64,000 nt of DNA from Sarea resinae (taxonomy: Eukaryota), in contig JAPEUD010000104.1 of NCBI GenBank assembly GCA_026026165.1, forward strand, positions 1 to 64,000, in the 5' to 3' direction. The translations under genes and the position numbers were made by a program. Positions 1 through 8,485 of the stretch are shown one piece after another. The notes below the pieces were generated by a model. The model did no database searches. It was not told the origin of the DNA and worked only from the letters and a program-made list of their open reading frames with translations. Position 1 is the stretch's first letter, and the number at the start of each line of letters is the position of its first letter.

Positions 1-127
1 CCTAACCCTAACCCTAACCCTAACCCTAACCCTAACCCTAACCCTAACCCTAACCCTAACCCTAACCCTAACCCTAACCCTAACCCTAACCCTAACCCTA
101 ACCCTAACCCTAACCCTAACCCTAACC
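1..127. repeat. Telomeric repeat array (CCCTAA)n, left chromosome end
   Basis: About 21 perfect CCCTAA units from base 1, ending ...cctaacc|gttccc. This is the canonical TTAGGG telomere of filamentous ascomycetes. Confidence 0.99.
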
Positions 128-1466
128 GTTCCCAAGTCGCATCGTGAATTGCCCATCCGCGCCACTTCGCAAGATACTGTTCATGGCGATTGTTGCCACG
201 TCCCACCATTTTGCTGCGGATGATCCGCTCGACTTCCCATTCCTGGTAGTCGATATCTTGTCCGATGCCTTCGTTGTGCTCTTTCTCTTTCTCGTTCTCG
301 TTCTCGTTCTCATCATCATCATCATCCTTATCGTCGTCGTCATCGTCATCGACCCTGAGGGGAGAGAGAGAAGCCGAGCGGGAGGGGGTGGGGCTGGGCA
401 GGGGAGGGGTTTCTTCTTCGTGGCGGTGGGATGCGAGGTAATTAAACATCTTGTCCTGCATACCCTCTGACATCTCGCTGTCGTCGTGTGTCAAGTAGTA
501 GGACAAGTCCTTGGGCTCGGCCTCGTCGGTTCCGGCCCCAGTCCCATCTTCTGCCGTTTCCATTTCGGTGTCCACGTCCGAAATTTGGGTCGTATCGCCT
601 TTAAGCTCCGATCTTGCATCATTCATTTCCATTTCGTCTCCATGGGAGCTCTCCTCCACGAACGAGCTGCTTCGATCCTCGTCGACGATACGGTCCTGAG
701 CTGCCGCGGCCGCCACCGCCGCTTCTTGATCCTCCCGGAGCTTTCTCGCGGTCCTGTCTTGTTCCTCCAATTGAGCCAGCCAGAGATGACTTGGGAACAT
801 GGGAGTCTCGTCCGCCATTGTCAGTCTCTCCCGTACCAACGTCAATCCTCGGTGGCATTCCTCGAGAGTGATCCGCGGGTCTGAACCCTGAGCTACAGGC
901 TTGATGGCACCGAGTACGATCCTCAAAGCCTCCCAATTTCTCCGTGCTCTCTTCAGAAACTCCAGGCTATGGACATGTGGTATCTTGCCACGTGACTCTT
1001 CGGTTTCTTGGATCGTCTCGATGGCATCGCGGCAAAGCTGTGTGGCGACGTACAATCCACTGGGATCGTCATAGTGATTCAGGTGATTTCTGATCCGGCC
1101 GTCGTTCTGGACCTGTTCTCAGGTCAGCTCGAACAAGGATTCTCGGGAACTCTGACATACCTCTAGCTGACGCGTTTCTACCATGGTAATGATCTTTTTC
1201 AATTCGTCCTTTTCTTGTCCGTCTGGTAGAGAAACCCAGATGTCTGGTGTCATCAGTGAAAGAGCGTCCAGTGACATCTTCAACAAGCCACAATTTCGAA
1301 CCACTGCGTATCTTCGCTGTTTCCGAGTGGTTGCTTGCTCCCGCTCTCGATACAATTCGTTGACAACGGTGCAAAGGTGTAGCACGTCTGCCATATCCTG
1401 CGCCAGCTTAGGGTGATCGACTTTTCGAAAAGGTCCGTCGAATTTTTCAGGAAGGGAGGCTGCCAT
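128..1466 (-). CDS. Chromodomain-containing protein, 3'-truncated by the telomere (no stop codon)
   Basis: Exon 1 is 1466-1161. A 48-nt phase-0 intron at 1160-1113 (GTATGT...GCTGAC...ACAG) removes the TGA that ends the listed ORF. Exon 2 is open from 1112 to base 1. The ~430-aa product has an acidic D/E tract, then YQEWEVERIIRSKMVGRGNNRHEQYLAKWRGWAIHDATWE (chromodomain, ~248-129), then R and (LG)n from the telomere. Confidence 0.85.
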
Positions 1467-1787
1467 AGTGCCGAGATTCGTACTTGATCGAAAAGTTGGT
1501 GATCGCGCTGACGAGCAGGTTGACGAGGATGATCAGAGAACTACACGATGTCAAACATCGGTAGGAATGAGAGCATCAATCAAAATCAATGGTAGTCGTC
1601 AGAAGTGATGCAATGTGTGCGGGTTTTCCGGATGCAAGACCACCTTTAGGGTTTCAAACCCCGAGACACACAGGTCACTCTGAGTGAATATCCGTCGAAC
1701 GTCTCATTTGGGTGTTGTCCGGTATTCGACTATACTTCCGGTAGTTTTGACAAGATTCGTTGAACGTCTCATCTACTTGGGTCATCT

Positions 1788-1978
1788 GACGTTTGACTTC
1801 GACTTCTCTGACGTTTGATATCAACTTCCTCCGACGTTTGACATCAACTTCATCAGACGTTTGACTTCGACTTTGACTTCGACTTCGACTTTGACTTCGA
1901 CTTTGACTTTACCAGACGTTTGACTTCGACTGCATCTCACGTTTGACGTTCGACCTCATCAGGCGTTTGCCTTTCGAC
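1788..1978. repeat. Degenerate tandem repeat, ~22-24-nt unit GACGTTTGACTTCGACTT.. with an internal (GACTTY)n expansion
   Basis: Several copies of gacgtttga(c/t)(t/a)tc(g/a)actt, with a run of gacttc/gacttt hexamers at 1863-1910. It lies in the divergent intergenic region between two subtelomeric genes. Confidence 0.85.
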
Positions 1979-2516
1979 TATCCGCTCAGCGTACCATCCA
2001 TCATCACCCGTACGAGTTGTTCAGTCAAGGCTCACTGCTCCTCTCATACTCGACCTGATCATCTACGTCACGATTGCCGTTGATCTTGATTCCCCTCCAT
2101 CCTACCGATGTTTGACATCGTGTAGTTCTCTTATCATCCTCCCCAACCTGCTTGTCAGCCCGATCACCAACTTTACGAGCAAGTACGAGTCTTCCGTGCG
2201 ACGAGTCCACGAGCTTCAGTCGGCGAAGTCTAGCCCACGATTCCCGGTCCACGGATTCACAGCCTTCTAAATCCTCTTGTAAGTCTTCCATGATCAAGTG
2301 TCATTTTTCGTCTTTCCTTTTACCTGACATGTTCCGTGTCTTCCATAGTCATAATCGTGATGGCCACGCAAAAGGCAGCAACGACCAAGCGGGTTACAAG
2401 CTCAGAACAAGAGTTAATAAGGTTCCAAAATTATTGTTAAGTGAAATAAAGGAAGTTATTATCGTGAGGAGCGAGACGATCATCACGTCGGTATCTCGAA
2501 GATCTTTTTCCGTCCG

Positions 2517-3228
2517 ATGAAAGAGTACCAGTCCAAGGGCCTCCAATTGATATACGACCAGAGTCTTCATGCGGATTTCACCGTGTCAGCAACCATCCAC
2601 CGCAGCCCCGAGACCAGCAATTTTGCCGTTGCACTCGATTGTCTTCAAATCACCCCGACAGTCCCCACCGAAAAGTCGGTTGCGCAATTCCTCTATCCAT
2701 CCACGAATTTCATCATGGGATTCAGGATGCTCAGCAATAGTCGAAGCCTCGAGGTCTGGAGGACCGCAAGGGTTCCGAATACGGCCGAGGTAGATCCATG
2801 ACAAATCAAGGCAATGATCTTTACTGACAAGATAACAGGTCGAGTCCGACATATGGTCCCTGCAATTCTGCAGAACGACGAGGCCGGCGGCCGAACAGGC
2901 CGTGGCAATGTGGTATCGGCTCGAGTCAATCCTGAGAAAGACGACCAATAGCCAGCTCGAGTACGTCAACGTCACCCGCGCCAGCATCAACAACAAGGAC
3001 ATCGCAGCAGACCGCTATAATCTGCGGGGTCAGAAGACACGAACGCCTCAAGAAACTTCAGGAGGATCAATGACGTGGGTGGTTCACAACAAGGAGGGCC
3101 CGCCAAAGGGTTACGAGTTCACGAATAGGCTCGCAAATCCCAAGCTCGTGGCAATGATGGAAAAGCTAGACTTGAACGACGACGACGTGGATCCGGATAT
3201 TGAAGGTAGCGAAAGAGAAGACGAATGA
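2517..3228 (+). CDS. Hypothetical protein (~220 aa; possible PH/EVH1-like fold)
   Basis: ORF 2517-2789 joins ORF 2902-3228 in frame through a 49-nt intron at 2790-2838 (GTAGAT...TACTGAC...AACAG). The true 5' end may lie further upstream (the frame is open back to ~2445). Confidence 0.65.
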
Positions 3229-4014
3229 GTTGGAAATAGCGACAGAGAGTTTCTGCGGGATGTGAGGTCATCATAAGAATGCCTGGGAACGTTTTGCTAC
3301 GGAGAGGCTTTTGAGGGCGAGCATGGCGGTGTGCATAGACAAGCTGTCGTTGAGAGTCGCTTCTTTTCTCGATGAGATTTCGTTTGCGAGCCAGATTCGA
3401 GAAGCCCATATGGCACGATGACGAACGAATCAATTTGATGCTTTCCGATATCTTGCCTTGAACATATTGAGATGATCTAGCTAATGAGGTGTGCGTTGAC
3501 TAATCAAGCACGTGACTAGTCTCAGGCAGTCATCAATTACCGTGTGTGTAGTAGTGACAATCAGCTAACCCTGTACTGCGAGACTAGAAAGAGTAGATCA
3601 CAACTTGCAACAGGAATGTTATTCTCTCGACCCACGCCAGCCCTTCTTGCAAAACGCCGCACCAGATCCCGCACACTAAGGTAGGTATCCTCCTGGCTTC
3701 ATCATTATTTGCAACACAGTTAGCGCGCTTCCTTGCCTCCCTCGATGGCCCTTCCACTAACCCAAGCCCTTAATCTGTCCTTGACGCTCTCTAGATCTGT
3801 AGCAAGAAGCAGAGCGGAGTCCTGATACATATCAGCAATCATAAATCCTATCACACTAGGCAGGCAAAAATCCGACTAAGCAACAATCCTATCAATCAAC
3901 AACAGAAATCCCACCTCTTAAACGCACAAAGTTTAGCTCCGCTGCAAATTCTATCCTTTCTCTGTTAAATACTGCTACGAAAGTCACAATGCCACTGGTG
4001 GCACTTTTACAATA

Positions 4015-6680
4015 TCAAGCGGATCTTGCCTAATCGGTTGCCTGCTTAGCGGCTTTATCACTAGGTATCGTGCTGCTTGCTTGACGATACTCTAGTCGCG
4101 CCTGTTTGAAAAGTCGTTCCCTGTGTGAAAGCTGTTCAATCGTCGGTCCAGAGGATAGAGCTAACTCGACAAGGCTTTGTGCAGCAACTCTGGCATTTTC
4201 TGGAATAGCCACTGATGTAGCTTTTTCGCTGACCCACAGTTCTATCCCCTGTGCTCAGAAGGAAGTCAACAGCGCGAGTGAAAACTTCTGTATCCAATGT
4301 CAGCATTAATACGTATTGGTATGACTTACTTCGCCTGTGGCTGTCATCTTCTCTAATTCTTGCCTGACTAGAGGCTTGAGATTTAAGACCCCTGATCGCT
4401 CAAACCCCTTCGCTAGGTTACAGTCCACTTGATTAATAGCGTATTTTGATTTTCGTGCAAGCTTCGCTGTCTCTCTTGCCTTCTATTGCCCTAAGCCCTT
4501 TTTAATCTGATCTTCTCTCTATAAGGGGTGTAATTCTCGAAGGCGCTCAAGGTAGACTAGGCTGTAATCAGTCAAGGCATTAAAGACATCTAGCAGCGTT
4601 AGGCCAATCCATTCCAAACCCTGCACGTCTGTATCCTCGAGACCTACAGTGTCATCAGAGACCTATACTTGAGGTTGGAAAACAGTTGGAAACCCTGGTA
4701 GTCGTGGTCTGAAAAGAACAGAAAGGGCAACAAGAGGTTTATGTCATCCTTTTGCAGCAAGCACAGAAACTCTCGCGTTGCGCAGTCGGCGAATCCAGGC
4801 GTCTGCCAGGATCGTTAGAATCCCTGCTTCAACCTAGAAAACCAAGAGGCACTTACTATGACTATGATCATTCCTTGGAGTTCCTTCCGATGCTCTTGAA
4901 ACGACGTTCTAATATTTCCATGCTCGGTCACGATTATCCCTCTCAACTGCCGGTCGACATCTCTTGTCGCTAGCTTCTCGACTATGTCAGGGATCAGGCA
5001 CCGTCCGCGAAGCTTTGTCTTGGTTGTCTTTTTGCTGCCCTTGCCTCGAAAGATAAAGATGTCGTCAACAACGTCTGCTATGATGCTGACTCTCTCAGGA
5101 AGATAAATCTCTCCGGTCGATTGTGCTAAAAACCCAAAGGCTTTTGAGTGCACCCTAACTGTAACAGCCTAATTATCGATGCGTTGCCGGATTTAGACTT
5201 AGGTGAAGTGTTTCTCTAGGCGGAGGAAGTATCTAGCTTTTCGAAACTTCACTGCTTCTTAGGCTCCTAGCATGGCTATGATCTGTTTTCCAACCGCCAG
5301 AAATTGGAAGAGCTATAGCAAGTTGGCTTCAGTGGTCCGCAAGGTTATTTCCCCTCTATGAAGCGGTTGCCCGCAGCTCTCGCTGTGGCCTCTGCGGCTA
5401 GCCTTCCTCTATTGCCAAAGTTCCCTGAATGCCTCTGTATGACAACGATGAATTGCAGGAAATTAGGAGGTTGCAGAGGTTCAGAGGCAGCGGCTGTTGG
5501 CTTTTCGTCCCCTTCCTCTTCTTTGGCCTTGATGGCTACGCCGTTATCATTCGGATTGTTCTCCACGAATTGGCAGAGCGAATCGACGAATTGCCTAATA
5601 CAATCGTCTTCTGGAGGGGGGATTAGGAGCGGGAGGCGGTGGACTGTGTGACTGTGGCGGCGCAGACTAGGGGGTGTATGCCTGTAGAGAGGGCGAATGT
5701 GCTGGTTCTACTGCTTCTGCTGTCGCTGCCGCTTCTGCTGCTCGTCTCCTCACCTGTCTTCCGCTGTTTCTAAAATTGCCAGAGTGCCTCTGTATAACCA
5801 CAATAAACCGTAGGACGTCTCGGTTCCTCTGTCAAGGCTAAGGCCTTATCAGTAGCCAAGTGCATGTGCTAGGGTGCTAGCACTTAGAGCTCTCTCGCTC
5901 CCACTACAGCCCTTTGCTGTCTCGATATACAACGCCCTTGCTGCCCTCGCTGTCGCCTCTGCATGCGGCCTACCGCCTTCGCTAAAACCACCTAAGTGTC
6001 TCTGTACTACCACGATAAACCGTGGGACGTCTTCTGTCCTCTCAGTCCTAGGTTAAGGCGTCCTAGTTTAAGGCGCAGGAACTATCGTCGCTAACACTTC
6101 TGCTGCCTTCTGCTCTTCTTCTTCCTTGTCCTTGATTGCCCTATCCTTACCTCCAGTGTAGCCATCTTCTTTTTCTGCCTTGATAGGGCTGTCTTAGAGG
6201 TGTCTGGCAGGGGAGGGTAGTCTGGTGACAGCAGCAGTGGACTGGGTGATAGTGGCGGCCGAGATTTGCCCTTCCGCCCTCCTAAAAGCTCCTAGAATGT
6301 CGCTGCTAGCGTCATCTCAGTAGAAGGTTGCGACGCGGGAACTATTAATTTTAGAACCCCTCTCGCTGTCTTGACATCGTTGTCCTCAGCCTTTATAGCC
6401 ACTGCTCAGTCAGGTCAGGCACTAGGCTGTGCCAAAGTTAGCGGGGGTTTTGTGCCACTAGAGCCGACAGAAACAGCGACTAAGGATAGGAACAGGAGTG
6501 GCATGAACAGGCGGATGCTAAGAGGTTATTCACTACATCTTTGTCTTTCGGGTTGTTCTTAAGTCCTTGGTCTTAGTAGCCCTATGCTCTTCTTTTGCCT
6601 TTATTGCGAAATATTTGGCTGTGATAGCTACGTCCTTGGCCGGCTTAGGAAGGATAGAAGGATAGAAGGGGATGTGGCAT
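4015..6680 (-). pseudogene. RIP-inactivated, divergent Spo11/DNA topoisomerase VI subunit A-like gene with a repeat-rich N-terminal extension
   Basis: Reconstructed minus-strand reading: LFQFLAVGKQIIAMLGA*EAVKFRKARY (Tyr at 5229-5231) ...HFT*V*IRQRIDN*AVTVRVHSKAFGFLAQSTGEIY ...GRCLIPD ...RGIIVTEHGNI ...MIIVI|TPGFADCATREFL ...LPFLFFSDHDYQGFQLFSNLKYRS ...LEWIG ...PLVRQELEKMTATGE|KFSLALL. Introns are at 4856-4803 and 4329-4288. Most stops are TAG/TAA derivable from CAG/CAA/TGG. Frameshifts occur near 4620, 5350 and 5670. Start and end are approximate. Confidence 0.8.
5370..6050 (-). repeat. Three dispersed copies of a ~35-codon repeat within the Spo11-like pseudogene
   Basis: ~5370-5460 NFLQFIVVIQRHSGNFGNRGRLAAEATARAA; ~5720-5830 DVLRFIVVIQRHSGNFRNSGRQVRRRAAEAAATA; ~5925-6045 DVPRFIVVVQRHLGGFSEGGRPHAEATARAA. 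Confidence 0.8.
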
Positions 6681-7180
6681 CGGTAGGCTAGGTGTGTCGC
6701 AGGGCATAACTAGCCGTGAGAAAGGAAACAAAAGTGGCATCGACAGGCAGATGCTGAGACGTAATTAGCCACATGTTTAATTTAGGGGTTGCTCTCTACT
6801 AACTCGATTCCTCGGCATATACAGCCACATCCTCACCGCCGATATTATCATCTTCAGACCAGGACCAGACAATTTAAACCATTTGGACCACTAGACCAGT
6901 AAACGATCAACAGCGCTGCTCTCAAAGACCAGGACTTCCAAGTTGGCCTTTTCCGCTTCTCTTCTCGCAGTCGCCTATCAGAGCAGTGTCTCGTAGGTTT
7001 GATTTGGCAGAAGCTAAAGAATCACCTTTTTTTCTCTCGCATCTTCTCTTTAGTAGTCGAGTAGGTTTGGTCATGTCCAGAAGTATCAGAGTGGTTGTTG
7101 CTTTAGACGCTGCAATCGTTGTCGATTCTGTCGCGGCGCAAATGTCGATCAAGACCCTCTGGATAGAGATAAGGGTACAG

Positions 7181-7303
7181 ATTGACGGTGAATTGACGGT
7201 GAATTGACGGGTGAATTGACGGGTGAATTGAAGATGTGACTGGAATGCTACTTGCGACTTCCGACTTCCGACTTCCGTCCGGCTCTACCACGGCTCTACC
7301 ACG
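7181..7303. repeat. Cluster of short tandem duplications at the subtelomere/core boundary
   Basis: (ATTGACGG[G]TGA)x4 at 7181-7230, (CGACTTC)x3 at 7255-7275 and (CGGCTCTACCA)x2 at 7280-7301. Confidence 0.85.
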
Positions 7304-7408
7304 AGCGCCAAGGATTCTAGATCAGAAATACCACGAGCTTTGCAAATAATCACCGTCGTATGGTGTACTCCGGAGTACTGTTACTGCAAGCAAATCTCTG
7401 CCATCAAG

Positions 7409-8485
7409 ATGCCTCAAATACTCAAATTAGGCGTTGCGCAGGCGCGCACGCGTTCGACGAGGTCGGAAACGCTGCAGGCCCTTGCAGTGACAACGCAGAA
7501 AGCGGCATCGCGGGGAATAAAACTGCTGCTGTTCCCCGAGGCGTATCTGGGTGGGTATCCCAGGACGTGTACTTTTGGGGCGGCAGTGGGTGCGCGTGCG
7601 CCAGAGGGTCGGGATCAATTCTTGCACTATTTCAGAGACGCGGTGGACCTGGGTGACACGCCGTCGGGCGCGGGTGATGCGTGGGTAGAGAGAAGACTGC
7701 CGCTACCAAAGGACGGTGGGATGAGGGGAGATGGGACGCGAGAAGAGCTCGAGCGCATCGCCAAAGCGACGGGTGTGTTCATCATCGTGGGCCTTGTAGA
7801 GCGTGCGGCCGGCTCTCTGTATTGCGGCGCCGTGTACGTGTGTCCGAGAGAGGGTATCATCGGGAAGCGGCGCAAGGTGATGCCTGTACGTAGTTTGATT
7901 CGATTTTTTTCCATGTGCTGACAGATCCAGACTGGCAGCGAACGCCTCGTCTGGGCACAGGGCTCGCCGTCGACGTTAAAGGCCGTCACGACAACAATCT
8001 CTGGCGTGAAATTGACTCTGGCTGCGGCAATCTGCTGGGAGAACTTCATGCCCCTGCTGCGTCACTCGCTGTATTCTCAAAATGTCAACCTCTACCTGGC
8101 GCCAACAGCGGACGCGCGAGAGACGTGGTTGTCCTTGATGCGGACGGTGGCGGGTGAGGGACGGTGCTTCGTGTTGAGTGCCAACCAATGCGTGAAGAAG
8201 AAGCATCTTCCGCCGTGGGTAATCAGTGAGGCTTCGACCGCGGTTCAGGCCTCGTCGCCCGAGGACGAGGATTTTGTCTGCCGCGGAGGGTCGTGCATCA
8301 TCGGTCCTCTTGGCGAGGTGCTTGTTGATCCTGTGTGGGAGGCTGAGGATGAGCTAATAGCGGTGGAAGTTGATTTTGACGAGTGCGAAAAGGGACGGCT
8401 GGATATGGATGTGGCGGGAAGTTATTCCAGGAATGATTCTTTCAAGTTGACGGTGGAAGGATTAGATCTAAACCCTCCTCCTTGA
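7409..8485 (+). CDS. Nitrilase (carbon-nitrogen hydrolase family)
   Basis: Catalytic triad motifs [11 protein letters not shown] (E), [17 protein letters not shown] (K) and [11 protein letters not shown] (C), plus the C-terminal [10 protein letters not shown]. Intron at 7886-7930 (GTACGT...GCTGAC...CCAG). Confidence 0.95.

Follow-up and report, generated by a model that had tools for sequence, protein, structure and literature searches.

A clipped chromodomain gene fused to telomere repeats at a chromosome end of Sarea resinae, probably by healing of a terminal break

The DNA analysed here (the window) is a stretch of 64,000 nucleotides at the start of contig C7 (JAPEUD010000104.1, 65,774 bases) of the Sarea resinae assembly GCA_026026165.1 (G000; 25.5 Mb, 143 contigs). 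It opens with a telomere array, into which a minus-strand gene, designated gene A, reads directly. Behind gene A lie an inverted repeat, a divergent gene designated gene B, and decayed DNA. The features are as follows, in window coordinates:

1..127, minus strand: telomere array (TTAGGG)n of 21.2 perfect units, its size presumably capped by the assembly
127..128, minus strand: junction; the final gene base, C, is codon position 1 after TWE, followed by GG-TTAGGG
129..239, minus strand: truncated chromodomain, residues 394-430, with W394, W419 and W422 present and the C-terminal helix (profile positions 35-53) absent
240..700, minus strand: acidic low-complexity linker (Asp+Glu 34% in residues 240-390); GTATGC at 463 may be a donor that goes unused
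701..1112, minus strand: exon 2, remaining part of a predicted all-helical orphan N-terminal region (structure model of low confidence, pLDDT 49.6)
1113..1160, minus strand: intron of 48 nt with canonical donor, branch motif and acceptor
1161..1466, minus strand: exon 1, 102 codons from the ATG at 1466
1474..2192, no strand: inverted repeat with arms at about 1474-1599 and 2070-2192, 85-90% alike, single copy in the genome
2360..3228, plus strand: divergent gene B, a probable pseudogene with a presumed start codon and gene model
2399..2465, plus strand: mitochondrial-type large-subunit rRNA insert (NUMT) of 67 bases inside gene B
3300..7100, no strand: decayed, repeat-like DNA full of stops, containing direct repeats of 73 bases, with short related stretches on contigs C72, C88, C89 and C95

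A reading made earlier from the sequence alone had described gene A as a spliced frame that never meets a stop. This was confirmed: from the ATG at 1466 to base 1, with the intron removed, the frame comprises 472 codons and 0 stops. The proposed intron (1160-1113) has a GTATGT donor, a CTGAC branch motif and a CAG acceptor, and is also that of the database gene model P0001, which equals residues 1-318 of the gene A frame with exactly this intron (an annotation, not RNA evidence) and is labelled as a partial hypothetical protein from a Sarea resinae metagenome-assembled genome. Since this model ends at position 463, i.e. before the chromodomain, the domain was missed by annotation. The 330-codon open frame of exon 2 was reached by none of 5000 base shuffles (best 288); the frame could be opened by seven different GT-AG introns. 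RIP was ruled out as a source of damage to gene A by its TpA/ApT of 0.3-0.5, which shows no RIP-like bias.

The chromodomain assignment held in a profile test, in which Chromo (PF00385) matched with 34.2-38.4 bits (cut-off 25.1). The match spans only profile positions 1 to 34/35 of 53 and ends exactly at the array, so that the domain stops at TWE and its C-terminal helix is replaced by a Leu-Gly repeat. W394, W419 and W422 align with the Y/W, W and Y/W of other chromodomains, in keeping with the claim of an intact aromatic cage; that these are the cage residues we take from HP1. Four intact chromodomains encoded in G000 reach profile position 52 and run on into the helix, and the nearest solved chains (CDY1, CDYL, CBX6 and LHP1) align up to TWE only, the chains themselves going further. 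In 3 of 4 aligned chromodomains the codon after TWE is Pro. Gene A thus resembles canonical chromodomains (PF00385) in sequence through TWE and in the three cage aromatics, but lacks the last 18-19 profile positions including the helix, and, unlike HP1, carries the domain behind about 390 orphan residues. A chromodomain without the helix probably does not fold; the predicted model of the clipped domain (pLDDT 54.9, from an alignment of 5 rows) was too poor for use on this point.

Homologues of the N-terminal region were sought in several ways. A word-indexed search with 4520 candidates (180-574 aa) left P0001 itself as the sole match, phmmer against 1.84 billion representatives returned only the protein itself, and there were no relatives among 104 metagenome and 10 viral pattern matches. 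An Atlas search gave no usable match and a fold search no match (query model pLDDT 49.6), and residues 1-318 matched no Pfam family. A homologue search with the chromodomain of gene A only also gave no matches, and no uncut allele was found in database, run and metagenome searches. Since neither uncut allele nor homologue was found, the loss is read from the anatomy of the domain alone, and since residues 1-318 have no detectable relative, the original function of gene A can only be deduced: the succession of helical domain, acidic linker and chromodomain suggests that it may be a heterochromatin-binding protein.

Two mobile-element sources of the chromodomain were considered and rejected. A chromovirus (Ty3) integrase chromodomain does not fit, because no reverse transcriptase (RT), RNase H or integrase is present, residues 1-318 lack any Pfam family and the gene has an intron. 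The genome's own chromovirus, on C108, carries RT, RNase H, integrase and chromodomain domains; it is an unbroken 2102-codon Ty3-type retrotransposon frame (L086:371-6676), though many repeats of the genome look RIP-mutated. A Starship captain with a CHROMO domain was likewise rejected, as there is no DUF3435 tyrosine recombinase and P0001 has no Pfam match; captains of this kind have a DUF3435 architecture, and fungal mobile elements do carry heterochromatin-binding proteins (PMC11162782).

Bases 1-127 of the window form a CCCTAA array without any mismatch. The proposed junction T-W-E-R-(LG)n was found in the letters as described: the gene frame is fused directly to telomere repeats, unique mid-domain coding sequence being joined straight to pure canonical units with 0 foreign subtelomeric bases between them. 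A Logan contig of sequencing run X1 spans positions 112-1564 with 0 differing letters and 12 gap letters, the latter probably representing two further repeat units. Its depth is 439, compared with 398-486 in the adjacent long pieces, and it includes 16 aligned telomere letters past the junction, fewer than the tool's 31-letter bridging rule demands. The contig belongs to a second assembly, probably of the same sample, and X1 may be the run from which G000 was built. These data bear on the view that the junction arose during assembly, by attachment of a telomere tip to a dead end, or represents a minority molecule, most nuclei having the gene in full. G000 is, by the P0001 label, a short-read metagenome-type assembly, and contigs lose rare variants. 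However, the second assembly, although probably made from the same reads, shows this junction again, within a single contig that does not branch and is as deep as the pieces beside it. Among the 24 loose ends listed (124 more exist), none lies at 127-128, and searches of G000 at the DNA and protein levels showed gene A to be single copy. An artefact is therefore considered very improbable.

In run X2, from another study, a 264-base contig of depth 2.1 matched positions 410-673 with one difference and ended short of the junction, and the gene body may therefore occur elsewhere. The difference, at window position 514, alters a Pro codon and may be a strain variant or an error. Runs X3 and X4 gave matches to low-complexity stretches and the rRNA piece only.

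Pattern searches of G000 placed all 420 matches of a 24-base telomere pattern in 25 outward-facing end arrays. The arrays are 124-127 bases long at 24 of the 25 ends and none is longer, a uniformity that presumably reflects the word length of the assembler. The sequence-only reading had noted that an identical junction at many ends would indicate the terminus of an element. The C7 junction was found at 1 of the 25 ends, and its phase, GGTTAG, is unique among them. Some sequence in common with another end was present within 1.5 kb at 17 of the 25 ends, C7 being among the 8 without any. Since the gene is single copy and the junction is absent from the other 24 ends, the junction is not an element terminus.

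The same reading had regarded the end as a one-off healed break. The junction is indeed unique, but the event is not singular, as two more ends, those of C78 and C58, start in gene-like frames. At the right end of C78 the array adjoins an ABC nucleotide-binding domain of which the second half remains, the gene having lost its 5' part; the Pfam match covers positions 58-126 of 137 (E 0.006, below the curated cut-off), 21 ABCC-type solved chains match the frame at E up to 0.01, and a longer paralogue (39%) lies on C134. At C58 (C58:128-1500) the array adjoins a 245-codon frame that begins inside a cysteine repeat and is cut on its 5' side; the repeat matches two other places in the genome, and the frame has a weak LysM match below the curated cut-off. 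Both of these frames read away from the telomere, and C7 is alone among the 25 ends (19 selected frames scanned with Pfam) in having a recognised gene directed into the array. Common repeats are capped at unequal points in several sets of ends: C77 is capped inside the sequence present at C68, C97 inside that of C87, C24 inside that of C5, and C30 inside that of C41 and C85, as is predicted by repeated cutting and capping. A RIP-like TpA/ApT of at least 1.6 was found at 14 of the 25 ends.

The ends of C3, C30, C41, C85 and C134 have a common subterminal sequence of 110-590 bases, C30 being capped mid-way through the shared part. The terminal sequence of C41 and C134 is a GC-rich tandem repeat (about 22 bases). 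At C15, C102, C59 and C85 microsatellite-like arrays run directly into the telomere.

Gene A lies inside about 7 kb of accessory DNA, which is followed by a nitrilase-family gene at 7.4 kb and by ordinary long genes further in. Ordinary long genes of core-chromosome type occupy window positions 12500-62700, their identities being presumed from the translations, and begin only about 12 kb from the telomere. The inverted repeat next to gene A (arms of about 125 bases) encloses a degenerate 6/12/23-base tandem array at 1788-1978 and is probably the common upstream region of two divergent orphan genes. Gene B, on its other side, meets a stop 26 codons after the ATG at 2360; two frames further on, 2445-2801 and 2836-3228, correspond to a decayed paralogue on C51 (78% at the DNA level). 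No Pfam family was found for gene B, no longer homologue among 113 candidates, and its Atlas matches were inconsistent. The C51 region (C51:184001-194000) is itself a decayed island, in which the paralogue of gene B is present as two pieces separated by about 6.4 kb, along with a DUF3716 frame.

The 67-base insert in gene B (2399-2465) drew very deep contigs in all four runs. An exact 29-base pattern taken from it occurs in at least 116 metagenome stretches; the 80 listed are rich in AT, with a median GC of 31%, and their identity to the 67-base insert reaches 97%. Two of the stretches, when scanned, proved to be large-subunit rRNA, and one of them adjoins tRNAs; an Rfam scan of window positions 1-8000 gave no direct match. 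By its sequence the insert appears to be a mitochondrial insertion. As gene B is broken by this rRNA piece, the island is decaying, and the NUMT, 2.3 kb inward, points to an earlier break repair in the island. The sequence-only reading had taken gene A to be otherwise undamaged, a description that the broken state of its neighbour makes less secure. Genes A and B may together represent what is left of a mobile or accessory module.

Insertional repair so close by could suggest that the telomere repeats, too, were inserted: at least 127 bases of them would then have entered gene A during the repair of a break, with the rest of the chromodomain on another contig. The assembly caps the array, so that its far side is not visible. 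Such an interstitial array is nevertheless very unlikely. Each of the 25 long arrays sits at a contig end and points outward, and G-strand arrays with other sequence after them occur at one site in G000:

C84, 52578..52612: three telomere units inside an intron of a gene that we take, from its sequence, to be polyketide-synthase-like

This sole flanked array is not followed by a chromodomain remainder, and hence no contig has the missing half behind an interstitial array (small contigs may be missing from the assembly).

A telomere may also be captured from another end through recombination or end-joining, rather than synthesised by telomerase. The unique GGTTAG phase would agree with this, as would a Pro codon after TWE, as in most of the aligned chromodomains: if Pro followed TWE, there was no seed and the end was a bare C. 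On the other hand, no foreign subtelomeric base separates the gene from the array, and seedless MoTeR junctions of Magnaporthe oryzae end mostly in C (5 of 6), as the junction at C7 does (PMC7367193). Capture is accordingly held to be very unlikely, if slightly less so than an interstitial array.

We therefore favour the view that a terminal break was healed by de novo telomere addition, leaving a pseudogene in the making, with a probability of roughly 0.8. As the sequence-only reading had proposed, telomere healing is the mechanism best supported by the truncated chromodomain, the single-copy gene, the unique junction and the direct fusion. On this view gene A, a single-copy orphan in a small accessory island at a core-chromosome tip, would have lost all that lay beyond mid-chromodomain through a double-strand break or through terminal erosion, and telomerase would then have extended the exposed end directly with TTAGGG repeats, on a seed of 0-2 bases. 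Since the frame is still open and lacks a RIP-like signature, the event was presumably recent.

Telomere healing inside genes is an already known kind of repair, of which gene A would be a further case. In Plasmodium falciparum, healing inside the coding sequence of var and rif genes makes pseudogenes; in strain 3D7, 5 of 28 ends are healed, 4 of them inside var genes, and more follow irradiation (PMC5550746). The Sarea ends are similar in that repeats are fused into coding regions and several ends per genome are affected (3 of 25 in gene-like frames). They differ in that i) the gene hit is fungal, a chromodomain orphan present once in the genome rather than part of a multicopy antigen family, ii) the TTAGGG unit keeps the gene A frame open as Leu-Gly, and iii) no uncut reference allele of gene A is known, so that loss is read from the clipped domain. 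In Magnaporthe oryzae, 19 of 24 new telomeres were formed on seeds of 1-4 bases, as simple truncations (PMC7367193). Here the likeness extends to an ascomycete host, the same repeat, and probable terminal truncation with a new telomere, whereas the sequences cut in M. oryzae, in the part of that study considered, are rDNA and MoTeR elements; at C7 a spliced protein-coding gene is cut and the end carries no telomere-targeted retroelement. The accessible literature on Sarea resinae yielded nothing on telomeres, and nothing relevant was found in the literature on helix-truncated chromodomains.

With its stop codon, 3' UTR and closing helix lost, gene A is most likely a non-functional allele. Genes adjacent to telomeres are often silenced, and mRNAs without a stop codon undergo decay through Ski7/Dom34-Hbs1, Ltn1 being required to dispose of the nascent chain. 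The clipped allele would thus either be silent beside the telomere or yield transcripts that fall to non-stop mRNA decay and ribosome quality control. Two of the three phases of TTAGGG are free of stops (Leu-Gly and Val-Arg); stop-free reading is therefore expected in 2/3 of frames, and the open frame is no sign of selection.

It could be argued that the fusion is tolerated or even used, either through transcription into the telomere, giving a variable Leu-Gly tail, or through splicing from the donor at 463, with a telomeric TAG as the stop. The frame, the intron signals and the upstream region are intact and without RIP-like bias, and joining the donor at 463 to an acceptor at 355 would give 395 codons that end at the first telomeric TAG. 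Yet each of the five acceptors beyond 463 lacks a branch motif and would put the chromodomain out of frame, no AATAAA-type signal occurs within 128-1466, the partner gene B is already broken, and the open frame needs no selection. We regard a tolerated fusion as the least probable of the alternatives, and extremely so; a non-functional allele is preferred.

The surprising part, a non-stop mRNA with a Gly-Leu tail, would depend on expression. Were the promoter intact, a spliced, AUG-started mRNA could run into the telomere and yield a protein with a (Gly-Leu)n tail that tracks telomere length, an amyloid-prone repeat replacing the helix; as a statement about gene A this is a long shot, drawn from the DNA frame. 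For mammalian cells a Gly-Leu dipeptide repeat protein has been proposed to arise from TERRA by non-AUG translation, and synthetic GL forms amyloid-like filaments (PMC9992779). The (GL)n product of UUAGGG is the same in both cases, but the gene A tail, as predicted from the DNA frame, would end an AUG-started mRNA. A literature search with strict terms, mostly in non-subscription sources and thus not proof of absence, found no case of transcripts or open frames entering healed telomeres, and the accessible part of PMC3145791 holds no direct case of a frame into a healed telomere.

As a healed break, the C7 end offers a clean, base-resolved example from a fungal lineage that has received little study. 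The survey of 25 ends points to terminal erosion that is still going on and that clips genes, as at 3 of the 25, in a way that annotation pipelines miss. Since C7 is the only end with a recognised gene pointing into the array, it is well placed for testing what cells do with an mRNA that lacks a stop and reads into the telomere, and is suited to asking whether fungi make Gly-Leu repeat tails. If they do so here, the product of gene A would parallel in nature, with ordinary AUG initiation, the dipeptide proteins suggested to come from mammalian TERRA, and the lineage would be one in which chromosome ends are cut and capped again and again through genes.
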